Shown here in pieces: positions 2,526 through 52,227 of a DNA stretch of 54,795 nucleotides. The first letter of the stretch is position 1; each line of letters opens with the position of its first letter. A program made the translations under genes and the position numbers. Under the pieces are notes generated by a model that was given only the letters and a program-made list of their open reading frames with translations, was not told the origin of the DNA and did no database searches. This DNA is from a virus. Location of the stretch: the IMG/VR virus record IMGVR_UViG_3300045988_094320, one strand, 5' to 3'.

Positions 2526-2556
2526 AGCGGTGTGGATTTCCATGCCGCTTTTTTTA
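2526..2556 (+). terminator. Intrinsic terminator between the lysin and the tape measure
   Basis: AGCGG-13 nt loop-(G)CCGCT followed by TTTTTTT. Confidence 0.6.
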
Positions 2557-2579
2557 ATTTACGGAAAGTTGGTGGAAGT

Positions 2580-5500
2580 ATGGCAGAAGTAGATAGCTTA
2601 GAGATTGCTATAAAAGCGCAGGCAACACAAGCAAATAACGCATTAGATAAACTGGTAAACAATCTTACTAGGCTGTCAAACTCTCTTATGAGCGTAAATA
2701 CAAGCGGTCTCAACGGTTTGTCAAATGGAGTAACAAAGCTGTCTAATGCTATGGCTGGAATCAGCACGGTAAAAACGGCAGATTTTACGAGAGTTGCTAA
2801 TGGAATCACAAAAATTTCAAGCATTGACACGGCTAATTTGAACCGCTCTGCATCTGCAATCGGTATGCTCGGAAAAGCCTTAACACCGCTGACCGCTTCT
2901 GGTGCATCTGACAGAGTTACAGCACTTGCAAAAGCGATTTCACAGCTTGGTTATAAGTCAAGCACAAAAGCCATTGACAATATACCTAAACTGGCTAAAG
3001 CTATGAAACAGCTTATTACAACGCTTTCCGGCGCACCAAAGGTAAGTCAAAATCTTATAGATATGACTAACGCGCTTGCACAATTTGCGCGTACTGGGGC
3101 ATCCGGCGGCAATGCGGCAAAGGCACTTGCGAATAACTTTACCTCTTTTGGTTCTACGGCAGTAAAAGCTAAAAAACATACGTTTTCACTAGCATCCGCT
3201 TTCGGAAAACTATACGCTTCATACTGGCTTCTGATTCGCGGAGCTGGGAAGTTAAAAGAAGCGATCAACATATCATCTGCTTTGACAGAAGTACAAAACG
3301 TAGTTGTCAATACGTTCGGGCAATATACAGATTCGCTTGAAAAATTCTCGAAAAATGCAATACAGCAGTATGGTATTTCTGAGTTGACTGCAAAGCAGAC
3401 AGCAAGTAGGTATCAGGCAATGGGTATCGCAATGGGAGTACCTATTCAGAAAATGTCTGATATGTCTATTGCGTTGACGAAGTTATCCGCTGATATGGCA
3501 TCTTTCTATAATGTAGAGCAAAGCCAAGTGCAGCAGAATTTGCAGTCTATTTTCACTGGCGAGACAGAACCAATGAGAAAATATGGTATCGACCTCACAA
3601 ATGCCACATTGAAAGAATGGGCTTTAAAAGAGGGTCTTGATGCGGATATTTCGTCTATGACGCAGATGGAAAAGACAATGCTTCGATACCAATACGTAAT
3701 GCAGAATACAGCGAATGTGCAGGGGGACTTCGCTAGGACTGCAGATACATGGGCGAACCAGCTTCGTATCTTGCGAGAGCAGTTTAAGGCGCTTGGGGCT
3801 ATTTGGGGCAATGCTTTTATCAATATGCTTAAACCACTTGTCAAGGCACTGAATACGGCTATGCAAGCTGTAATTAAGTTTTCTGAAACTGTTGTAAATG
3901 CGCTTGGGGTTATTTTTGGTTGGAAGATTGAAATGCAGTCCGGCGCAATAGCAGAAGATTACGACACGGCGGCTGGAAGTGCTGATGATTTAGCGGCAAA
4001 CACAGGGAAAGCGGCAGATAATGCTAAAAAGCTAAAACAGCAGTTGCAGGGCTTTGATAAGTTAAACAATCTTACAACAAACCAAGGCAGCGACAGCGGA
4101 ACTGGAAAGGGAAGCGGTGCTGGTGGCGCTACTGGCGGTGCATCTGGCGGCAATCTGAAATTCAATGTTAAGGAAACGGAAAGTTTTTACAAGAGCAAGA
4201 TAAAAACGCTTGAAGGACTTGGAAAGTATATCGGGAATAGCCTGTCAAAAGCTATGGAATCCATTAAATGGGATAAAGTATATAAGAAAGCAAAAGCGTT
4301 CGGTACAGGTCTTGCACAGTTTTTAAATGGTCTTATCAGTCCAAGACTTTTCGGAAATGTCGGAAAAACCATTGCTGGCGCACTTAACACAGCTATCTAT
4401 GCCGCGCTTTCATTCGGAACGACATTTAACTGGAAAAACTTAGGCAATTCGATTGCAAAAGGAATCAATAAGTTTTTTGACACGTTTGATTTCGCAGCAT
4501 TCGGAAAGACCGTCAATACATGGGTACATGGTATATGGACTACTCTTACTACGGCAATCAAGAAGATAAAGTGGGAAAATGTATTAAAAGGAATTACTGA
4601 TTTCCTAGGAGAACTTGATCTCGAAACAGTTTCAATTATTCTTGGTGTCATTACAATCAAAGGAATAAAAAAACTTCTGTTTTCTGAAAAATTCAAAAAA
4701 TGGTTGGGAGAAAAAGCATCAAAGGTAATTGTCAAAGCAATAGCTTCAAAATTGGGAGTAGAAGCGACTTGGTCTGTAGTAGGAAAAACTATTTTAACCA
4801 AGGTCGGCGGAATATTTGCAGGAATCGGCGCAAAAATTGGAGCCACAATAAACATGGCAATAGCTTCTGCTGGCGGTATGCAGGCAATAATTGCAGCAGG
4901 CACCTTAATAGCAGAAACATTATTCGCAGGAATAGCCGCGGCAATAGCAGGATGGAATTTAGGTCAGTGGCTAAATGAAAAACTAACAGGCGAAAAAATA
5001 GATATGTCATTCTCGGAGCAAATGACAGAAATCAAAAATTCCTTTTCTGATGGTTCGTGGAAAGAAGCGTTGAAACTTTGGGGCGACGATATCTACAACG
5101 GTTTTCTTGCTGTTTCAGAATCAGAAGACCAACTTATGAAGCCTGTTAAAGATGGGCTGAATGAAGTGAGAGGAATGTTCTCTGACGGTCAATTCGGAGA
5201 AGCTATGTCTCTTTGGGGGCAAGATATATACGATGGTTTCTTGTCAGTATCGCAGTCGCAAGATAATTTTATGAAGCCTTTTAAAGACAAGTACAATGAG
5301 GTAAAAGGTCTTTTTGCTGACGGACAGTTCGGCGCGGCTATGGGAGCATGGGGCGACGATATCAAACTGAAACTGAACAATGTAAAAGATAGTTTTCTGC
5401 TGACATGGGATAACATAAAGTTAGGCGTTAAAAGCGCATGGCAAGCTACGGTTGACGGTCTGAAAGAAATATGGAACAAATTCGCAACGTGGCTGAACGA

Positions 5501-5900
5501 GAAGCTATCGTTCGATATACCGCCAATCAATATTGCTGGCAAGGAATTATTCGGTGGCACACATATCGACCTCGGCAAAATACCGACTTTTGCAAGCGGC
5601 GGTTATGTTCCAAAGCAGTACAGCTTGCTCATGGCTGGCGAAAATGGTATACCAGAAATCGCAGGAACGGTAGGTGGAAAGACAGCGGTTGCCGGCGGCG
5701 CGGAAATCACGGGCATTAAAGAAGCAATCTTACAGGCATCAAGCAATGAAATGGCTCTACTGAGACAACAAAACACGCTACTGCAAGGTATTCTTGCTAA
5801 AGAGTTTGGCATCAGTCAGTCCGACGTAGGAAAAGCCGCTAGAAGTTATGCAAAGGACTATAACCAGCGGACAGGAAAAGACGCATACAGTTTCGCTTGA
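2580..5900 (+). CDS. Tail tape measure protein
   Basis: 1106 aa from ATG 2580 (RBS GGTGGAAG); the track ORF opens at 2532, inside the terminator. It has a TP901-type core (FYNVEQSQVQQNLQSIFTGETEPMRKYGIDL), a Gly-rich linker, a hydrophobic block and 45-aa tandem repeats. Confidence 0.9.
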   Translation: MAEVDSLEIAIKAQATQANNALDKLVNNLTRLSNSLMSVNTSGLNGLSNGVTKLSNAMAGISTVKTADFTRVANGITKISSIDTANLNRSASAIGMLGKALTPLTASGASDRVTALAKAISQLGYKSSTKAIDNIPKLAKAMKQLITTLSGAPKVSQNLIDMTNALAQFARTGASGGNAAKALANNFTSFGSTAVKAKKHTFSLASAFGKLYASYWLLIRGAGKLKEAINISSALTEVQNVVVNTFGQYTDSLEKFSKNAIQQYGISELTAKQTASRYQAMGIAMGVPIQKMSDMSIALTKLSADMASFYNVEQSQVQQNLQSIFTGETEPMRKYGIDLTNATLKEWALKEGLDADISSMTQMEKTMLRYQYVMQNTANVQGDFARTADTWANQLRILREQFKALGAIWGNAFINMLKPLVKALNTAMQAVIKFSETVVNALGVIFGWKIEMQSGAIAEDYDTAAGSADDLAANTGKAADNAKKLKQQLQGFDKLNNLTTNQGSDSGTGKGSGAGGATGGASGGNLKFNVKETESFYKSKIKTLEGLGKYIGNSLSKAMESIKWDKVYKKAKAFGTGLAQFLNGLISPRLFGNVGKTIAGALNTAIYAALSFGTTFNWKNLGNSIAKGINKFFDTFDFAAFGKTVNTWVHGIWTTLTTAIKKIKWENVLKGITDFLGELDLETVSIILGVITIKGIKKLLFSEKFKKWLGEKASKVIVKAIASKLGVEATWSVVGKTILTKVGGIFAGIGAKIGATINMAIASAGGMQAIIAAGTLIAETLFAGIAAAIAGWNLGQWLNEKLTGEKIDMSFSEQMTEIKNSFSDGSWKEALKLWGDDIYNGFLAVSESEDQLMKPVKDGLNEVRGMFSDGQFGEAMSLWGQDIYDGFLSVSQSQDNFMKPFKDKYNEVKGLFADGQFGAAMGAWGDDIKLKLNNVKDSFLLTWDNIKLGVKSAWQATVDGLKEIWNKFATWLNEKLSFDIPPINIAGKELFGGTHIDLGKIPTFASGGYVPKQYSLLMAGENGIPEIAGTVGGKTAVAGGAEITGIKEAILQASSNEMALLRQQNTLLQGILAKEFGISQSDVGKAARSYAKDYNQRTGKDAYSFA
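5043..5370 (+). repeat. In-frame 135-nt (45-aa) tandem repeat, about 2.4 copies, inside the tape measure
   Basis: FSDGSWKEALKLWGDDIYNGFLAVSESEDQLMKPVKDGLNEVRGM / FSDGQFGEAMSLWGQDIYDGFLSVSQSQDNFMKPFKDKYNEVKGL / FADGQFGAAMGAWGDDI... Confidence 0.85.
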
Positions 5901-21362: not shown

Positions 21363-22436
21363 ATGGCAGAGAATACATCGGTTTCAGATAAAAAAGCATT
21401 TACCACTTCGTTAAGCGAGTGGAGTAATACAATGACAGGACTTATCATCAACGATTATAAGGCTGTCGGAATGGATATGGACGATTACGCAAAAGAGTGT
21501 GCTATGGAAGCTATGACAAGCATATTTAATCTTGTTAAGAGCGACCCTAAGATTAACATGGGAAACCTTGATACAAGTAATTTAAGGGGCATTGTCAAGC
21601 GTTGTGCAAGCCTTAAGTTGAATGCTAGTGCATATCCAAGAGAGTGTTATTTTCAATTAAGGAATGTAAAAATAGGAACTGACACGCAGACAGGCAAAGA
21701 TATATGGCAGAAACAGGTTGAAATGGGAATCGAGGGTACAGGTTATGACTCTTTGCTTGCAAACTACGGAAAAGATGTTAAACAGGTATATCCGTATTGG
21801 GTAATTAAAGAGGGTGACAAGTACATACCGCCTAAACATAAAGGGCTTACAGTTACAGAGCCAGAGTGGGAAGAAAACGGATTATCTGATAAGGCAGTAA
21901 GGGTTGTGTATCCTGTTAAGCTGTTAGACGGAACAGTAACATATCTTTCTGCTGATAGAGACAGTGTTAAGGTAAATCTTTTAGCTCATGTTAAGCAAAA
22001 CTTAATGAATGAGACTTTTGGTGTTTGTGAGGATAGATACCACGCGGCACCAAAGCAGAAAGCAGAAATTAAGGCTAAGAAAGATGAGATACTTAACGCC
22101 TTAAGAGCGTGCAAGACAGTAGATGAAATGCTTGAATGCGAACTTGCAAGACCTTTTATAAGCGGTGCTTGGATTGATACCCCAGAGAGCATGATTCAAA
22201 GAAAAATGTGCAACAATGCTACAAGAAAATATCCAAAGAATTATGACCCAATGGCACGACAGGCACAGGTTGAAATGGACGAGGTATATCAAGTTGCACA
22301 GGCTGAAATCGCCGAAAATGCTAATACTGTTGAGTTTATAGAAGATAAGGCAGATGTAGTTGACACCACGGCAACAGGAGCAGCTGACAAGCAGTCAGAG
22401 GAGCTACCACCATTTATGCAGAGCGAGGAGAACTGA
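21363..22436 (+). CDS. Possible ssDNA-binding/annealing recombination protein (function uncertain)
   Basis: 357 aa lying between the SMC-like ATPase and the MBL nuclease. It has an acidic C-terminal tail, EELPPFMQSEEN, reminiscent of SSB-type tips. No firm motif recognised. Confidence 0.35.
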   Translation: MAENTSVSDKKAFTTSLSEWSNTMTGLIINDYKAVGMDMDDYAKECAMEAMTSIFNLVKSDPKINMGNLDTSNLRGIVKRCASLKLNASAYPRECYFQLRNVKIGTDTQTGKDIWQKQVEMGIEGTGYDSLLANYGKDVKQVYPYWVIKEGDKYIPPKHKGLTVTEPEWEENGLSDKAVRVVYPVKLLDGTVTYLSADRDSVKVNLLAHVKQNLMNETFGVCEDRYHAAPKQKAEIKAKKDEILNALRACKTVDEMLECELARPFISGAWIDTPESMIQRKMCNNATRKYPKNYDPMARQAQVEMDEVYQVAQAEIAENANTVEFIEDKADVVDTTATGAADKQSEELPPFMQSEEN

Positions 22437-32456: not shown

Positions 32457-32855
32457 ATGAGGTTATCAGAACTGACTAAGCCAGAGATTGATGCAATCGT
32501 CGGAAATGCTAATTTTACGGAAGAAGAATATCAAGTGTTCCAGTATTTATCTAAAGGTGTAACACTTGATGAAATGGTTTATAGGTTAAAGCTATCGAAA
32601 GCTACTATTTCAAGAATTGTATTCAAGGTCAAAATGAAAATAGAAAGGATTGATAAAATGAAGCAAAATATACCTGTATGGGAAAAAATCACAATGACAG
32701 TAGAAGAAGCTGCAGAATATAGCAGCATTGGCATAAACAAAATCAGAGAGCTTTCAAGCGATCCCAGATGTAATTTTGTTATCTATATAGGCAAAAAGCG
32801 GTTAATAAAGCGAAAAGAGTTTGAAAAGTTCATTGCTGATAATGTGGAGTTGTAG
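32457..32855 (+). CDS. Fusion of a sigma-70 region-4-like HTH and an excisionase-type HTH (Xis-like)
   Basis: N-terminus FTEEEYQVFQYLSKGVTLDEMVYRLKLSKATISRIVFKVKMKI. C-terminus MTVEEAAEYSSIGINKIRELSSD...KKRLIKRKEFEKFI. It lies immediately upstream of int. An internal ATG at 32658 has an AAAGGA RBS. Confidence 0.6.
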   Translation: MRLSELTKPEIDAIVGNANFTEEEYQVFQYLSKGVTLDEMVYRLKLSKATISRIVFKVKMKIERIDKMKQNIPVWEKITMTVEEAAEYSSIGINKIRELSSDPRCNFVIYIGKKRLIKRKEFEKFIADNVEL

Positions 32856-32861
32856 ACTTAT

Positions 32862-32903
32862 AAAGCCTTATGTGATATTATATGTATTTGCATAAGGCTT
32901 TTT
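32862..32903 (+). terminator. Terminator hairpin whose loop contains the int promoter
   Basis: AAAGCCTTATG (32862-72) pairs with CATAAGGCTTT (32891-901), followed by TT. The loop carries extended -10 TG-a-TATTAT (32873-32881). Confidence 0.6.
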
Positions 32904-32926
32904 CCATACAGAAAGGAGCGTAAAAG

Positions 32927-34057
32927 ATGGGAAAAGACCTAAGAGGTAAGGAAATAGGGCAGGGTTTGTCCCAAAGGAAAGATGGGTACTATGTCGCTAG
33001 GTATACTGACAGGTACGGAAAGCGCATACAAAAACTGTTCTTGAAAATGAGAGAAGCCCAAAAATGGCTTTCAGAAAATAAGTATGAGGAGCAACACTCA
33101 AATATAGACTTTCCATCGGACATGATTGTTGAATCGTGGTTCCAATACTGGATTGCAATAAAAGAGAAAACAGTAAGACCGAATACCGTCAGAAATTACA
33201 GAGAGCGTTATAACAGGAATATAAAGCCGATAATAGGGAATAAATTATTAAGAGATGTAAACAGTATTCATTGTCAGCAAATATTTAACAAAATGGATGA
33301 TGAAGGATACAGGAAATCGACAATATATCAGACAAGAATCGCATTATACAATATGCTGCAATATGCATTTGACAACGATGTAATAAGAAAAAATCCATGT
33401 ACGAGGTCTGTTATATCTGATATGGGAAAAGAATCCGCGAAGAAAGAAGCACTCACAATAGAAACACAGAAAAAATTCTTGGAGTATGCTTCCGGTATGT
33501 CTTATGAATATCAATATAGATTTATTCTACAGACTGGATTGAGAACCGGGGAGCTTGCAGGTTTAAAGTGGGAAGATATAGACTTTAAAGGCAGAACACT
33601 TACGGTCAGCAGAAGTTTGGAGTATAGACATTCAGCAGGTGAATGGAGAGAGGGGCAGCCGAAGAGTAAATCCGGGTACAGGACTATACCCCTGACAGAT
33701 GAAGCAATTTATATCCTAAATAAGCAAAAAGAGAAAAATGCGCATCTGAAATTTGTCGAAATGCAATGGAAAGACAGAATATTTTTGTGCAAAACCGGAG
33801 CACCTGTTAAGAACAGCACATATGACACGGCGTTATTTAAAATATGCGACAAGGCAAAAATTCCTAGATTCTCAATGCATGTATTGCGTCATACATTCGC
33901 TACGAGATGTATAGAAGCCGGAATGATGCCGAAAACTCTTCAAACGATTTTAGGACATTCAAATATCGGAATAACTATGAATCTTTACGTGCACACAACA
34001 GACGACCAGAAGAAAATAGAAATTGAAAAAGTGGCAAAAGCACTAAAAGTTGTGTAA
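32927..34057 (+). CDS. int: Tyrosine integrase
   Basis: 376 aa with ..GLRTGELAGLKWEDIDF.. and HVLRHTFATRCIEAGMMPKTLQTILGHSNIGITMNLYVH (R..HxxR..Y catalytic signature). Confidence 0.95.
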   Translation: MGKDLRGKEIGQGLSQRKDGYYVARYTDRYGKRIQKLFLKMREAQKWLSENKYEEQHSNIDFPSDMIVESWFQYWIAIKEKTVRPNTVRNYRERYNRNIKPIIGNKLLRDVNSIHCQQIFNKMDDEGYRKSTIYQTRIALYNMLQYAFDNDVIRKNPCTRSVISDMGKESAKKEALTIETQKKFLEYASGMSYEYQYRFILQTGLRTGELAGLKWEDIDFKGRTLTVSRSLEYRHSAGEWREGQPKSKSGYRTIPLTDEAIYILNKQKEKNAHLKFVEMQWKDRIFLCKTGAPVKNSTYDTALFKICDKAKIPRFSMHVLRHTFATRCIEAGMMPKTLQTILGHSNIGITMNLYVHTTDDQKKIEIEKVAKALKVV

Positions 34058-34318
34058 AATTGGTACATAATTGGTACATAAAAATAAAACAAAGACAAAG
34101 AAATGCGATAAAACAGGCATTTCTGGTAAGGAGAAAGTTGAAATGAAATTAGGCATCGTAGTTAATTGACGTTTTTTATATAAATTTACGTGGTTTAATA
34201 TATTGCTACAAATACCTATTTTATTGAGTTTTTTGAGTTTTTGTGAAATTGTATATTTTTATATATTTTCACGTATTTTTATAAAAATTGGTACATAATT
34301 GGTACATAACTGGTACAC
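34058..34318. other. attP-like region: five direct 11-bp arm-type repeats flanking an AT-rich core
   Basis: aattggtacat x2 (34058-34079), then aattggtacat x2 plus aactggtacac (34286-34318). About 205 bp of AT-rich DNA lies between, with the inverted GTGAAA/TTTCAC pair. Confidence 0.55.
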
Positions 34319-34337
34319 GGAAAAAGCCTTATGCAAA
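34319..34337. repeat. 19-nt perfect inverted copy of 32887..32905
   Basis: GGAAAAAGCCTTATGCAAA is the reverse complement of TTTGCATAAGGCTTTTTCC. Confidence 0.95.
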
Positions 34338-34353
34338 ATGAGAATAAATTGAT

Positions 34354-34381
34354 AAGAATGTGAGAACCACATTCTTTTTTT
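34354..34381 (+). terminator. Strong intrinsic terminator downstream of attP
   Basis: AAGAATGTG-agaac-CACATTCTT followed by TTTTT. Confidence 0.8.
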
Positions 34382-34649: not shown

Positions 34650-35120
34650 ATGCAGCCTTACCCAAATCCAAATTACTACCAGAACTATATGCAGCCGCCG
34701 CAGCAGATTTATAGTCAGCCGGCAGTACAGCAGTACCAGCAACCTTCATATATGCAGCAGGCAGCGCAAAGAATAAACGGAAGAGTGGTGCAGTCCGCAG
34801 ATATGATTACCGCAAACGATGTCCCGATGGATGGATCGGTTGCGTTCTTTCCCACACAAGATCTGTCAGAGATATACGCAAAGAGTTGGGATGCGAATGG
34901 CAAAATCGTTACAAGGCTTTTTAAGCCTGTTTCAGATTCACACCCTTCCAATCCCACACAAGAAACAGAAAAATTGAAAATAGGGCTATCAGACGAAGCC
35001 ACAGAGGTATTCAACAAGCACTTTGATACACTGTTTTTCAAAATAGAAGAACTGGAAAAGAAAATTGACGAGAAATCTTTGACTAAGACTAATGCAAGAA
35101 CAAAAGTTAGTCAAGATTAG
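34650..35120 (+). CDS. Protein with a Q/P/Y-rich N-terminus and a conserved-looking beta domain
   Basis: 156 aa from ATG 34650 (RBS GAGAGGAA). The first 40 residues contain 13 Q, 7 P and 7 Y, followed by INGRVVQSADMITANDVPMDGSVAFFPTQDLSEIYAKSWDANGKIVTRLFKPV. Confidence 0.55.
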   Translation: MQPYPNPNYYQNYMQPPQQIYSQPAVQQYQQPSYMQQAAQRINGRVVQSADMITANDVPMDGSVAFFPTQDLSEIYAKSWDANGKIVTRLFKPVSDSHPSNPTQETEKLKIGLSDEATEVFNKHFDTLFFKIEELEKKIDEKSLTKTNARTKVSQD

Positions 35121-35154
35121 TCCAAGTTTAGTCTAAAAATAGGATGGTGGCTTT

Positions 35155-35385
35155 ATGATGAATCAAGGAATTATACAGGCAATAAATAAATTAAAGACAA
35201 TCAGGAACCCACAACAGGCAGCCATGCAGGCATTGCAGAATGCAGCAAGGCAAGGAAATCAAATGGCAAGCGGAATTTTGCAGAATATCCAGTCTGGAAA
35301 CATGGCAGGCGTAGAGCAGACACTTAATAATTTTATGGGTGAAAATGGAATCAGTATGAATGATATAAGTCAAATGTTTAGATAA
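35155..35385 (+). CDS. Small Q/N-rich helical protein
   Basis: 76 aa track ORF. Confidence 0.45.
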   Translation: MMNQGIIQAINKLKTIRNPQQAAMQALQNAARQGNQMASGILQNIQSGNMAGVEQTLNNFMGENGISMNDISQMFR

Positions 35386-35398
35386 ATAGTACATATTA

Positions 35399-35434
35399 GG
35401 GTTTTGTCCGGACAGAGTAAAAACCAAGGTTCCC
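35399..35434. promoter_or_regulatory. Bipartite double palindrome, copy C (TGTCCGGACA + AAACCAAGGTT)
   Basis: 10-mer at 35405-35414 and imperfect second palindrome at 35421-35431, 33 nt upstream of ATG 35468. Confidence 0.65.
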
Positions 35435-35467
35435 TATTTGTAAATAAACAAATGGAGGTAAACTAAT

Positions 35468-36238
35468 ATGTTTAGTAACGGAGTAAGCCTTGCTGACATT
35501 GCGGCAGTAACGGGCAACAACAGAGACAATGATGGTATGTGGGGCAATGGCGCATGGTGGATTGTCATTCTCTTAATTTTCGGGTGGGGAGGCTTCGGCA
35601 ATAATGGCTGGGGCGGTAACGGTGCCGGAAATGGTTATACAGATGCGGCAATTCAGAGAGGTTTTGACAATCAGGCTGTTATCAGCAAACTTGACGGTAT
35701 CACAAACGGTCTGTGTGATGGATTCTATGCTGTAAACAACAGTATGCTTACAGGTTTCAACGGAATCAACACCAATATCATGCAGACAGGCTATGGCATC
35801 CAGCAGGCAATCAACGCTGACACAATCGCGAATATGCAGAACACAAATGCATTGCAGGCGCAGCTTGCAAACTGTTGCTGCGAAACTCGTGAAGCTATTC
35901 AGGGTGTAAACTACAACATGGCAACCAACACTTGCGCATTACAGAACACCATGAACAGCAACACAAGAGATATCATCGACAGCCAGCAGGCAGGAACGAG
36001 AGCGATTCTCGACTATCTGTGTCAGGATAAGATCGCAACATTACAGGCTGAGAACAGCGATCTCAGACAAGCTGCATCACAGGATAGACAGAATGCACTT
36101 CTGACTACTGCAATGACAGCGCAGACACAGCAGATCATCAATTCTGTAAACCCACCGGCAATCCCAGCATATGTTGTTCCTAACCCAAACACATATGTGC
36201 CATACGGATGCGGATGCAATCAGAGTTGCGGATGCTAA
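35468..36238 (+). CDS. Membrane-anchored N/Q/G/W-rich protein with a Cys-rich C-terminus
   Basis: 256 aa with RBS GGAGGT. A TM segment (WWIVILLIFGW) is flanked by GNG/WGG repeats. There is a long N/Q/T/A-rich region with a CCC motif, and the protein ends YGCGCNQSCGC. Confidence 0.6.
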   Translation: MFSNGVSLADIAAVTGNNRDNDGMWGNGAWWIVILLIFGWGGFGNNGWGGNGAGNGYTDAAIQRGFDNQAVISKLDGITNGLCDGFYAVNNSMLTGFNGINTNIMQTGYGIQQAINADTIANMQNTNALQAQLANCCCETREAIQGVNYNMATNTCALQNTMNSNTRDIIDSQQAGTRAILDYLCQDKIATLQAENSDLRQAASQDRQNALLTTAMTAQTQQIINSVNPPAIPAYVVPNPNTYVPYGCGCNQSCGC

Positions 36239-48586: not shown

Positions 48587-48599
48587 TGCAGAGGTGTGT

Positions 48600-50042
48600 A
48601 TGAACAGAAGATTTTTACAGGACATCGTAAAAGGATGTTACGGTAGAAAAATTGCATATACGAATGTTGAGCAGATAACAGAAGCTAATGTCGTACAAGT
48701 AATCGGAAACTGCATCGGTGCATTTTATTACAACAAAACAGTAATAAAATATCTATGGGACTACTACAAGGGAGATCAACCGATTCTGTATAGACAAAAG
48801 GTAACAAACGAAGATATCACAAACAGAATCGTGGAAAATCATGCCTACGAAATTGTTCAGTTCAAAGTGGGTCAGACATACGGAGAGCCGATACAATTCA
48901 TTAGCCGAAAGGATGATAAAGTAATCAACAAGGCTGTGGATATGCTCAATGATTTTATGGCAGATGCTAATAAACAAGAAAAGGATATCAAAGCTGGCGA
49001 ATGGCAATCTGCAACTGGTACATCATTCAAGGCAATACAGCCGTTCATAGGGGAAGTACCGTTGAGAATTGTGGCACCTACTCCAATGAACACTTTTGCA
49101 ATTTATCAAGAGGGAACAGAAGAAGCTCTTTTAGTAGTTCAAGAGTTGAAAGATGAAAACGGTAAAATGTATAAACTGGCGTTTTCTGATACAAAATCTT
49201 TCAAAATAGTTGATGGAAAACTGGAATACTCAAAATTGCATACATATGGCGCGATTCCGATTGTTGAATTTCCGAACAATCACGAAAGGATATCGGATAT
49301 CGAACTTGTTATTGGAATGCTGGATGCAATCAATAATATGCAGTCTAATCGAATGGACGGAGTAGAGCAGTTTGTACAATACTGGATCAAATTTATAAAT
49401 TGCGACATAGATCAAGAAGAATTTGAAAAAATGAAAGAAAGCCATGCGCTTACTGTAAAATCAAATAATTCTGATAATAAGTCCGATGTGGATATTATGA
49501 CGCAGGAACTGGATCAAACACAGTGCCAAGTGGCTAAAGACGACTTATGGAATAATACGTTGTCAATTTTGGCAATTCCAAATAAACAGGGAAACACCGG
49601 CGGAGATACACAGGGAGCCGTCGAACTTCGTAATGGATGGGATTTTTCAAAGACAAGAGCAAAATTGAAAGACCCTATTGTAAAATCGGCAGAAAAGAAG
49701 CTGGCATATGTTGCATTGAATGTCCTGAAAATTGCAGGAATTGATCTGAAATTATCTATAAGAGATTTTAATGTCCAGATCAATCACAGTCCGCAAGATA
49801 ATATGTACACTAAGGCACAGACGCTTACAGTATTGTTGCAAGCCGGCATACATCCTCTTATTGCCATAACTACTGTTGGTCTTTGGGGAGACGCGGAAAA
49901 GACATTTAACTTATCAAAACCGTATCTCGAAAATCTATATAAGACTATTGATGATGCAGAAGCGCAGCAGGAAAAGGCAAAAGAAATCGTAAATCAAATG
50001 AATAAACAGCAGAAAAAGCAGTTACCGAGTAATAATCGGTAG
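48600..50042 (+). CDS. Portal protein (SPP1 gp6-like)
   Basis: 480 aa from ATG 48600. YLWDYYKGDQPILYRQK...NRIVENHAYEIVQFKVGQTYGEPIQF is the typical portal N-terminal signature. Confidence 0.9.
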   Translation: MNRRFLQDIVKGCYGRKIAYTNVEQITEANVVQVIGNCIGAFYYNKTVIKYLWDYYKGDQPILYRQKVTNEDITNRIVENHAYEIVQFKVGQTYGEPIQFISRKDDKVINKAVDMLNDFMADANKQEKDIKAGEWQSATGTSFKAIQPFIGEVPLRIVAPTPMNTFAIYQEGTEEALLVVQELKDENGKMYKLAFSDTKSFKIVDGKLEYSKLHTYGAIPIVEFPNNHERISDIELVIGMLDAINNMQSNRMDGVEQFVQYWIKFINCDIDQEEFEKMKESHALTVKSNNSDNKSDVDIMTQELDQTQCQVAKDDLWNNTLSILAIPNKQGNTGGDTQGAVELRNGWDFSKTRAKLKDPIVKSAEKKLAYVALNVLKIAGIDLKLSIRDFNVQINHSPQDNMYTKAQTLTVLLQAGIHPLIAITTVGLWGDAEKTFNLSKPYLENLYKTIDDAEAQQEKAKEIVNQMNKQQKKQLPSNNR

Positions 50043-51159: not shown

Positions 51160-52227
51160 ATGAATATTAGAGATGTATATAGCGCTAAAAACATTGCGTT
51201 AGTACAGACGCAAGTTGCAAGTAATAAGATTGCATATCTCGGCGCTGGATTGTTTCCAGCGAAAAAGAAAATGGGACTTGATCTGAAATGGATCAAAACC
51301 TCAAAAGGTTTGCCTGTTTCTCTTGCACCATCAAATTTTGATGCAGTATCGACATTAAGAAGCCGTGAAGGATTCCAGCTGACTGAAACAGAAATGGCAT
51401 TTTTCCGTGAATCAATGCTTATAAAAGAATCAGACGAGCAGGAAATCATGCGCGCGCAGGACAGCACAGATCCGTATGCAACGGAAGTCTTAAGCAGAAT
51501 TTTTGATGATGCCAATACGCTGGTTGATGGCGCAAATGTTGTACCAGAAAGAATGATTATGCAGTTACTGGCTCCAGCAGACGGAAATCCAAAGATTTCT
51601 ATTCAGGCAAACGGTGCAACATATGCATACAACTACGATCCGCAAAACACATACAAACAAAACAATTTTGCTTCAATTTCAACTAGCACTGATAAGTGGA
51701 GCGATACAACAAATTCTGAACCTATGGCAGACGTTCAAAAAGGATTAGATGCCGTAGAAGCAGCAACAGGCGAAAGACCCACAATCATGATCGTGTCTCG
51801 TAAGACAATGGACTACTTAAAGCAGAATGCAAAGATCAAGTCAGCAATTCTTGCGCAGAACACAACCGCAAACATCTTCATGAATGATAACCGTGTCAAA
51901 GAGGTATTCTCAAACGAGCTGGGCATCAGAATTATTGTATATGCAAAACAGTACAAAAAAGAAGATGGAACGGTCGAGAAATTCTATCCGGATGGATTTG
52001 CTACGCTTATCCCAAGTGGCGCTCTTGGTAATACATGGTACGGTACCACACCGGAAGAGAGGACACTGATGGGTAAATCTACAGCAGATGTATCCATCGT
52101 TAATACAGGTGTTGCGGTAGCAGTTACAGTATCAGAAGATCCAGTACAGACAAAAACTACTGTATCAGAAATCGTTCTGCCATCCTATGAAAGAATGGAT
52201 AGCACATATGTAATCAAGTGCTACTAG
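51160..52227 (+). CDS. Major capsid protein (lambda gpE-like family)
   Basis: 355 aa. The N-terminus IRDVYSAKNIALVQTQVASNKIAYLGAGLFPAKKKMGLDLKWIK and the overall pattern fit the capsid protein E family. Confidence 0.85.
   Translation: MNIRDVYSAKNIALVQTQVASNKIAYLGAGLFPAKKKMGLDLKWIKTSKGLPVSLAPSNFDAVSTLRSREGFQLTETEMAFFRESMLIKESDEQEIMRAQDSTDPYATEVLSRIFDDANTLVDGANVVPERMIMQLLAPADGNPKISIQANGATYAYNYDPQNTYKQNNFASISTSTDKWSDTTNSEPMADVQKGLDAVEAATGERPTIMIVSRKTMDYLKQNAKIKSAILAQNTTANIFMNDNRVKEVFSNELGIRIIVYAKQYKKEDGTVEKFYPDGFATLIPSGALGNTWYGTTPEERTLMGKSTADVSIVNTGVAVAVTVSEDPVQTKTTVSEIVLPSYERMDSTYVIKCY

Follow-up and report, generated by a model that had tools for sequence, protein, structure and literature searches.

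A 19-nt inverted repeat bracketing int and attP in a temperate phage genome, and a predicted pairing of the int mRNA ends that integration would break

The subject of this analysis is an inverted repeat that brackets the integrase gene (int) and the phage attachment site (attP) of a phage of gut bacteria recorded in IMG/VR as IMGVR_UViG_3300045988_094320. The whole stretch of DNA analyzed (54,795 nt, 39% G+C; hereafter the window) has a 99-nt direct terminal repeat and thus represents a circularly closed assembly, that is, a complete phage genome of ~54.7 kb. The int region with its repeat forms the end of the early, rightward gene block and comprises an excisionase-like open reading frame (ORF; xis), the gene for a tyrosine integrase, attP, and an intrinsic terminator (Table 1). 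The left copy of the repeat, A' (TTTGCATAAGGCTTTTTCC, 32887-32905), lies between xis and int, and the right copy, A2 (GGAAAAAGCCTTATGCAAA, 34319-34337), between attP and the terminator; over all 19 nt they are exact reverse complements, which confirms the central observation of an earlier note made on this DNA from its letters alone. Together they constitute the sole perfect inverted repeat of at least 18 nt within the window, and a search allowing up to 3 mismatches found no further copy anywhere in the genome. At that tolerance chance would supply 0.05 matches, and the observed count was reached in 0 of 100 shuffles; likewise, when the region downstream of int was shuffled 100 times, the score of the repeat was reached in 0 cases. 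The 19-nt inverted repeat is real and not a product of chance.

As had been proposed, A' is also the 3' arm of a hairpin that ends xis, with A (32862-32872) as its 5' arm and a T run following. Its 11 Watson-Crick pairs are lengthened by G.U pairs and then followed by TTTTT; the G+C-containing stem, the direct T run and the position just past the stop codon are those of an intrinsic terminator, and equivalent hairpins follow xis in relatives. The 84-nt leader segment containing this hairpin folds at -20 kcal/mol (z = -2.8). The loop is 18 nt long, and a simple terminator scan passed over the hairpin because its loop exceeds 8 nt when Watson-Crick pairs alone are counted. Inside the loop lies the -10 element of a predicted int promoter (9 of 12 matches, with TG in addition; TAGACT lies 17 nt upstream), the same TG-n-TATTAT at 32873-32881 that the earlier note took for an extended -10; it is conserved across the family, a TGnTAnnnT-type motif occupying the same place in all relatives examined. 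A' starts 5 nt past the -10 hexamer and is predicted to supply the first bases of the int-promoter transcript; its end (32905) falls 6 nt short of the int Shine-Dalgarno sequence (SD), a gap that recurs in other lineages. A2 stands, as the earlier note described, just past the arm-type repeats and before the terminator, adjoining the last of those repeats (34310-34318) and 16 nt before the terminator stem. The opposite strand of the leader hairpin (32906-32877, minus strand) carries a promoter-like TGGAAA-18-TATAAT (10 of 12 matches) with a counterpart in the related locus L117 (4975-4947); it would read antisense into xis. Rfam has no family at the repeat region, where the sole match was a sub-threshold one to SpR14 that overlaps the hairpin on the minus strand (28 bits versus 50, E = 0.28).

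Table 1. Positions of features in the 54,795-nt window, with the int region first.
Feature	Position	Strand	Basis or detail
Excisionase-like ORF, 132 aa	32457..32855	+	Pfam domains
int promoter (predicted)	32853..32881	+	-35 TAGACT 32853-32858, TG 32873-32874, -10 TATTAT 32876-32881
A, 5' arm of hairpin after xis, AAAGCCTTATG	32862..32872	+	11/11 complementary to A', fold
A' (left copy)	32887..32905	+	3' arm of xis terminator-like hairpin, and T run
int Shine-Dalgarno AAAGGAG	32912..32918	+	sequence read; outside repeat
Tyrosine integrase gene, 376 aa	32927..34057	+	PF00589 E = 3.6e-30; PF14659 E = 7.8e-11
Int-proximal arm, two arm-type repeats TTGGTACATAA	34060..34081	+	sequence read
Phage-borne ychF start	34130..34169	+	SD GGAG 34130-34133, ATG, first five codons
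Crossover (overlap) region of attP, GGCATCGT	34152..34159	.	attR L004 and attL L094 compared with window
Int-distal arm, three arm-type repeats (TTGGTACATAA twice, then CTGGTACAC)	34288..34318	+	sequence read
A2 (right copy)	34319..34337	+	exact reverse complement of A'
Intrinsic terminator	34354..34381	+	9-bp stem (34354-34376), 5-nt loop, T run
Tape measure	2532-5900		PHROG match
RecT	21363-22436		PHROG match
Large terminase	46084-47838		PHROG match
Portal	48594-50042		PHROG match
Major head protein	51160-52227		PHROG match

The crossover within attP could be located from junctions with host DNA. Ten viral contigs encode an integrase 96-97% identical to that of the window, and one of these, L004, tracks the phage to ...ATGAAATTAGGCATCGT and then runs on as TGGCCTTCCCAACGTAGGGAAAAGT..., translated MKLGIVGLPNVGKSTLFN; the protein beyond the junction is the ATPase YchF (NCBIfam TIGR00092, E = 9.5e-43), and because phage sequence passes into host ychF, L004 represents an attR junction. 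L094, retrieved with the DNA that lies to the right of A2 as query, is an attL junction: host DNA (...AACAAAATGAAACTCGGCATCGT) is joined directly to AGTTAATTGAC..., followed by three arm repeats, A2 and the terminator. Comparison of both junctions with the window puts the crossover at 34152-34159, inside the interval of ~34081-34285 given in the earlier note, bounded on one side by phage/host differences at 34149 and 34151 (TTA versus CTC) and on the other by a difference at 34160. Strand exchange falls within the first codons of host ychF. The free phage reads its own ychF-start segment as a mini-ORF (MKLGIVVN and a stop, 34143-34169), which is left at attL too (L094 1-200); integration preserves the ychF reading frame, and phage DNA replaces the promoter and 5' untranslated region (UTR) of the gene. 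No terminator was found between int and ychF at attR (L004 5190-5487). Integrases 68% and 55% identical to that of the window occupy the same ychF position in a Lachnospiraceae and an Oscillospiraceae metagenome-assembled genome, respectively, and no tRNA or tmRNA was found as integration target at the att sites. In lineages that do not use ychF, no RNA gene was found as att target; the only RNAs there are of the unrelated Clostridiales-1 and skipping-rope types, some 340-420 nt or farther off.

Several further features of the attachment region and of DNA flanking integrated relatives were recorded. A small hairpin at 34100-34125, with a TAAAAT-like loop motif (CCGTAAAATNAAGG), lies ~20 nt upstream of the ychF SD and recurs at the same position in L015, L016, L146, L160, L165, L173, L204 and L252 despite differing arm repeats; it could be a ychF promoter in lysogens or a site for a host factor. 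Repeats resembling TTCAC(A/G)TATTT lie between the core and the int-distal arm sites (~34186-34197 and 34268-34278), with equivalents in L117, L232, L244, L248 and L252, and are candidate excisionase-binding sites. DNA flanking integrated relatives contains a Clostridiales-1 RNA (L233 6606-6773, minus strand) and two skipping-rope RNAs (L243 6604-6682 and 9165-9243, plus strand), all above Rfam gathering scores. An integrase lineage that targets the first codons of ychF and swaps its promoter and 5' end bears on prophage effects on host physiology; in pneumococcus an element next to ychF alters its expression (PMC6375853).

Integration separates the copies of the repeat. In two lineages A2 goes to attL while A' and int remain at attR, so that the predicted move of the right copy to the opposite prophage end is borne out by junction contigs. 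Besides L004 and L094, nine further contigs from the lineage with 73% identical integrases are attL junctions with a different host flank, consistent with the crossover, and three of the nine carry A'-int at their other end; these are therefore whole prophages with the two copies at opposite ends. Hybrid att sites give evidence on what A2 belongs to. At the ychF cores of L160, L161, L171, L173, L175 and L191, loci of free-phage appearance that had shown no repeat, the arm repeats are of a different type on each side, as would result from two different prophages in tandem. A non-cognate A2 then stands beside int; it goes with the arm type of the far side and fits the leader of the integrase that uses that arm type, on another contig: the L171 leader ATCAAGGCTCT matches AGAGCCTTGAT in L160, L173 and L175, and the L160 leader GTATTGAGGCTC matches GAGCCTCAGTAC in L171 with one G.U. 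Because A2 tracks both the arm type and the matching integrase leader, it is part of the int cassette. Cassettes of this kind have been exchanged between phage backbones: homology ends inside xis (~32750-32800) and returns at ~34800-35640, xis diverges together with the int cassette, and A2 varies with the cassette, whereas the terminator at 34354-34381 and the next gene (MFSDE...) belong to a backbone common to phages with quite different cassettes.

Conservation of the repeat was evaluated in 160 more loci retrieved by alignment-based scans (integrases 33-73% identical). For every locus the 72 nt preceding the int SD were compared without gaps with the 600 nt past the int stop codon, and the score of the most complementary placement was set against 100 shuffles; this scoring was used in place of RNAduplex, which over-extended the pairings and was noisy. 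An inverted repeat is present at the same two places in at least 11 free-phage int-cassette lineages with integrases 33-100% identical, its left arm starting 36-49 nt before the int ATG and its right arm 255-306 nt past the stop codon, and in most lineages 0 of 100 shuffles reach its score. In the window's group (integrases 96-100% identical) the repeat is perfect over 16-21 nt. Elsewhere it comprises 18 nt with one C.A in the L117 group (73%), a helix with one bulge in L181 (72%), 17 nt in the L146 group (70-72%), 15 nt in L165 and L188 (65%), 19 nt with one mismatch in L204 (58%), 15 nt in L213 (47%), 26 nt with two mismatches in L232 (36%), 17 nt with two mismatches in L244 (36%), 18 nt with two mismatches in L252 and L253 (34%), and 15 nt with one T.G in L248 (33%). 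Arm-type repeats vary by lineage (GGTACA, GGTGTAG, GGTGTMAA, GGTGTCAA, GTGTGTA), as equivalents of those in the window, and in five lineages that keep the repeat the att core differs. At ~24 integrated loci, where ychF follows int, complementarity is at background only, and L243, the integrated twin of free L244, has no repeat. The mid-distance relatives L015-L017 likewise have none; they are all integrated copies, and this result is therefore uninformative.

The pairing is maintained through changes of sequence. About seven distinct helix sequences occur among the lineages (TTTGCATAAGGC, ACTGTATAAGGC, TGTTGAGGCTC, TATTATATAAAGGCTC, TATATCAAGGCT, TATAGTGGCTC and ATGCCACGGCT), and when 19 distinct loci are aligned in register and without gaps, both sides have changed in 14 of 20 pairs. 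Pairing is found in 86% of cells, versus 32-53% when the partner is slid by 1-3 columns, and 0 of 500 shuffles reach these values. A2 moreover fits A' better than the hairpin arm A does: the Watson-Crick run of A2:A' is longer than that of A:A' in 8 of 9 sequence-distinct lineages (for example 19 versus 11, 17 versus 11, 15 versus 6 and 18 versus 7), duplex energies for A2:A' are -21 to -33 kcal/mol, and a C-to-T change in A' of L204 has its compensating counterpart in A2, whereas the hairpin keeps a G.U there. This pattern suggests that A2 has been selected to pair with A', unlike a third copy of a protein site. Across lineages the complementarity begins 4-9 nt past the -10 element, approximately where transcription is predicted to start, and the T run is part of it in every case. 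When the predicted int mRNA of the window (32888-34381, 1,494 nt) is folded in full, nucleotides 1-18 pair with A2 beside the terminator hairpin in both minimum free energy and centroid structures, so that the complementary mRNA ends envisaged in the earlier note do find each other in silico. No terminator is predicted between the int stop codon and A2 in the window, L117, L232 or L252. In silico, the 19 perfect pairs, the fold and the covariation all bear out complementarity between the 5'-UTR and 3'-UTR of one predicted message; the SD (32912-32918) stays outside the duplex, A' ending at 32905. Because the pairing covaries across lineages, a finding beyond the reach of the earlier note, the case for its reading is raised considerably.

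On this evidence selection has most likely acted on an RNA helix in which the 5' end of the int-promoter transcript pairs with A2, and which would form in cis only while attP is intact. The proposed mechanism is as follows. The int gene would have its own promoter, with the -10 element in the loop of the hairpin that ends xis, and transcripts from it would begin inside A'; because of that start they would lack the 5' arm A. In the free circular phage such a transcript would pass through int, the 260-nt attP and A2 and stop at the terminator 16 nt on, and a duplex of 15-19 bp between A' and A2 would hold the outermost 5' nucleotides of the message against its 3' end, beside the terminator hairpin. 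Integration at GGCATCGT would cut the DNA between int and A2; the int message of the lysogen would then reach ychF and, because int and A2 are separated, have no partner in cis. Int output would accordingly depend on an intact attP, a retroregulation by position that acts through long-range pairing of the message ends, and the A'-A2 pairing probably reports the state of integration to the phage. As to the sign, a protective effect may be preferred, in which the closed loop would guard the 5' end from 5'-end-dependent decay and more Int would come from the free phage, still in need of integration, than from the prophage; this sign is slightly favored because the duplex covers the 5' end, spares the SD, and acts on a transcript that yields Int without Xis. 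Precedents on its side are the UTR pairing of hbs, by which RNase cleavage is limited, and the higher int expression of circular ICEclc, both described below. Pairing in vivo, any effect on Int, and the promoter and transcript ends are what we infer from these comparisons. Taken without a sign, the core proposition of an RNA pairing in cis that is broken by integration appears to us somewhat more probable than improbable; joined to the protective sign it is a tentative proposal, and rather unlikely to hold in full.

Several observations weigh against this proposal. The promoter, the start site and the read-through of attP are predicted. The covariation counts use a register taken from the best match at each locus, and the lineages have common ancestors, so the robust part of that evidence is the set of about seven different helix sequences. 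The widespread lineage with 73% identical integrases has a fixed C.A mismatch in mid-helix (leaving 9 + 8 bp), and in the group to which the window belongs, A2 differs between members in its outer 1-3 bases, with no matching change in A'. Mismatches show no clear excess of G.U over A.C, the events being few and of mixed types; because these types show no strand bias, constraint on the int-strand RNA as opposed to DNA is not provable from them. At attL in two lineages A2 is placed downstream of the displaced ychF promoter region, and promoter-like sites inside attP point at A2 as well; because both face A2, pairing in trans after integration is possible. The sign, finally, is a judgement, and the precedents of lambda sib and icaR are both negative, although a protective closed loop suits the anatomy no less well. 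The interpretation in the earlier note is therefore partly supported overall: of its claim that the logic of sib is built here from different parts, the position beyond attP and the separation on integration have stood, and the dependence on integration is not watertight, since A2 at attL may be transcribed and pair in trans. The position of A2 downstream of an orphaned ychF promoter at attL is a complication that the earlier note did not foresee.

The most serious competitor accepts the same pairing in cis and reverses its effect, as in true sib logic: the duplex would be cut by RNase III or would hinder initiation, a cut would remove the protective 3' terminator hairpin and leave a monophosphorylated 5' end, and the free or replicating phage would yield little Int, whereas the prophage transcript, having no A2, would be stable and keep the lysogen ready for excision. 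Perfect duplexes of 15-19 bp are plausible substrates of RNase III, and all of the structural and comparative evidence for pairing applies equally to this alternative. When transcripts extend to the distal site, lambda sib reduces the Int made from them (PMC2951348), and the duplex between the 3'-UTR and 5'-UTR of icaR is an RNase III substrate that lowers IcaR (PMC3868564). On the other hand, the target would be the int-promoter transcript, which provides Int without Xis and is needed by the free phage, and this is hard to square with lysogenization unless another promoter supplies Int; the duplex, moreover, never covers the SD, and in some lineages it has 11-15 bp, which is short for RNase III. 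A destructive effect is doubtful in itself, yet nearly as likely as the protective closed loop. A further alternative puts A2 to work in trans, within a small antisense RNA that ends at 34354-34381 and tunes the 5' end of the int (int-ychF) message; it would be made in lysogens from the displaced ychF promoter at attL or, in both states, from a promoter in the int-distal arm, and the position of A2 would then not be a sensor of integration. The attL contigs of two lineages do consist of host upstream DNA, a remnant ORF of 7-8 codons, and A2 with the terminator ~170-210 nt on; the host flank of L094 holds TTGAAA-17-TATAGT, and promoter-like sites between core and arm face A2 in the window (34175-34204), L117 (11/12), L252 (10/12) and L232. 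Yet such match counts in AT-rich regions do not exceed those of shuffles, the repeat is kept in lineages with other att cores and backbones, the int transcript of the free phage already contains A2 so that intramolecular pairing should dominate, and in tandem lysogens the neighboring A2 is non-cognate; we consider a role purely in trans improbable.

Unlikely to a similar degree, if slightly less so, is the possibility that the two copies are DNA sites for one protein of the cassette (Xis, Int or another regulator) and covary in order to fit the same protein, one site being an operator over the int transcription start and the other bordering the int-distal arm on its outer side. The -10 element lies between A and A' as it would between operator half-sites, A2 adjoins the arm-type sites, Xis diverges with the cassette, the mismatch spectrum has no preference for RNA over DNA, and repression of an int promoter by an excisionase is known from TorI of KplE1 (PMC2951348). 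Against this stand the near-perfect matches of 15-19 bp between two sites only in many lineages, which are longer and cleaner than typical protein sites, and the constant inclusion of the terminator T run in the match. A2 also resembles the complement of A' more closely than it does A, which equivalent protein sites would not predict; it lies outside the arm sites and away from the core; the TTCAC(A/G)TATTT-like repeats are better placed as Xis sites; and the genome has no further copy. That the repeat has no regulatory role, and is a duplication remnant, flanks an invertible segment, or forms the terminal inverted repeats of a mobile int-attP cassette, would suit its exact bracketing of int and attP and the clear exchange of int cassettes between backbones, but complementarity has been kept through about seven helix variants, and between lineages with different variants the flanking attP DNA is not alignable; we regard this as very improbable. 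Among specific forms of it, an inverton is unlikely, as xis precedes int on the same strand in 165 of 165 int-oriented loci and no inverted form was seen, and so is a mobile cassette with terminal repeats, whose boundaries lie inside xis and at ~34800-35640 and not at the repeats. A circularization-dependent promoter of the ICEclc Pcirc type was also considered and set aside, the far-end element being downstream of int and co-oriented with it.

The genes around the repeat are those of a Tn916-type Xis/Int module, with a PF09035 Xis directly upstream of a tyrosine integrase and two plus three arm repeats around the core. The C-terminal half of the excisionase-like ORF is Tn916-Xis (PF09035, E = 3.7e-23, aa 69-128) and its N-terminal half a weak match to a GerE/LuxR-type helix-turn-helix (HTH; PF00196, E = 0.0018, aa 19-62); the ORF is a fusion of the two, several relatives carry the Xis part alone, and homology to backbone-sharing phages stops between the two halves. 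In the close relative L009/L103 int is broken at codon 318 by unrelated DNA with a ParA-like gene (~4954 onward), either by an insertion or as an assembly chimera. A distant-mode search of deposited phage genomes found no DNA-level relative of the int region. Elsewhere in the window, just upstream of the terminase gene, lies an 86-nt tRNA with anticodon TTA (43228-43313), which reads the UAA stop codon, beside a tRNA-Gln(TTG) and a tRNA-Ser(GCT) (sites 43535-43608 and 44035-44119); it could be a suppressor tRNA and perhaps a hint that a stop codon is reassigned in late genes.

The textbook notion that int is retroregulated from beyond attP comes essentially from lambda and phages close to it, and how Int levels are set in the free as opposed to the integrated state is largely uncharted for Firmicute phages and Tn916-like modules. 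Full-text literature searches found no description of a pairing between an int 5' end and a site past attP. The element defined here is conserved, covaries, is split by recombination, and has exactly located parts in dozens of human- and animal-gut phage genomes. If the proposal is true, the sib principle extends to a new mechanism, the end-to-end pairing of an mRNA; it would be the first 5'/3'-UTR interaction switched by a DNA rearrangement; and it would provide a sequence signature by which free phage and prophage could be told apart in metagenomes and attL and attR matched to each other. A wider speculation, which we think possible but doubtful, is that temperate phages of gut Firmicutes carry a widespread, undescribed integration sensor in which recombination splits a helix of the int mRNA and, in phages that target ychF, the displaced half becomes an antisense RNA from the orphaned ychF promoter. 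Such an RNA would act on the phage-driven int-ychF message and thereby relay host promoter activity to the gene that the promoter has lost.

Comparison with known systems shows which parts of this arrangement have precedents. Lambda sib is a local extended hairpin over the tI terminator; RNase III cuts it, and it arises only when antiterminated transcription from pL reads through. Both systems have a cis element beyond attP, downstream of int and co-oriented with it, in the order xis, int, attP, element, and integration separates that element from int (PMC2951348); the split is seen here in L004, which lacks A2, in L094, which has it, and in the nine attL contigs of the second lineage. In contrast to sib, no local extended hairpin overlaps the int terminator: A2 has no local partner, its predicted partner being the message's 5' end at a distance of 1.4 kb, the terminator is a separate hairpin 16 nt on, the transcript would come from int's own predicted promoter and not from read-through, and there is no sequence relationship. 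Int expression is linked to the att region and the excisionase in KplE1 as well (intS and TorI; PMC2951348), where, however, the int promoter overlaps attL and is repressed by DNA binding of Int and TorI, whereas the predicted phage promoter and the core are 1.2 kb apart. In ICEclc, int expression rises specifically when the element is circular, which is thought to favor reintegration (PMC5812530). The logic proposed for the phage, with int expression tied to joined element ends, would be the same, but Pcirc is an outward promoter placed upstream of int and acts transcriptionally, whereas the phage element lies downstream and consists of complementarity, not of a promoter. Pairing between the 3' and 5' untranslated parts of a single Firmicute mRNA is known from icaR of Staphylococcus aureus, where it covers the SD, blocks initiation and creates an RNase III site (PMC3868564); the phage duplex, in contrast, would start at the very 5' end and stop 6 nt before the SD, and a recombination site between the partners would let a DNA rearrangement switch the pairing. 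In Bacillus subtilis hbs, a 14-bp pairing of 5'-UTR and 3'-UTR limits RNase cleavage of the mRNA (PMC5737220); hbs thus shares long-range UTR pairing of similar length, and the protective role is that of hbs, a chromosomal housekeeping gene with no switch by recombination. By these analogies the phage pairing appears mechanistically closer to the UTR pairings of icaR and hbs than to sib.

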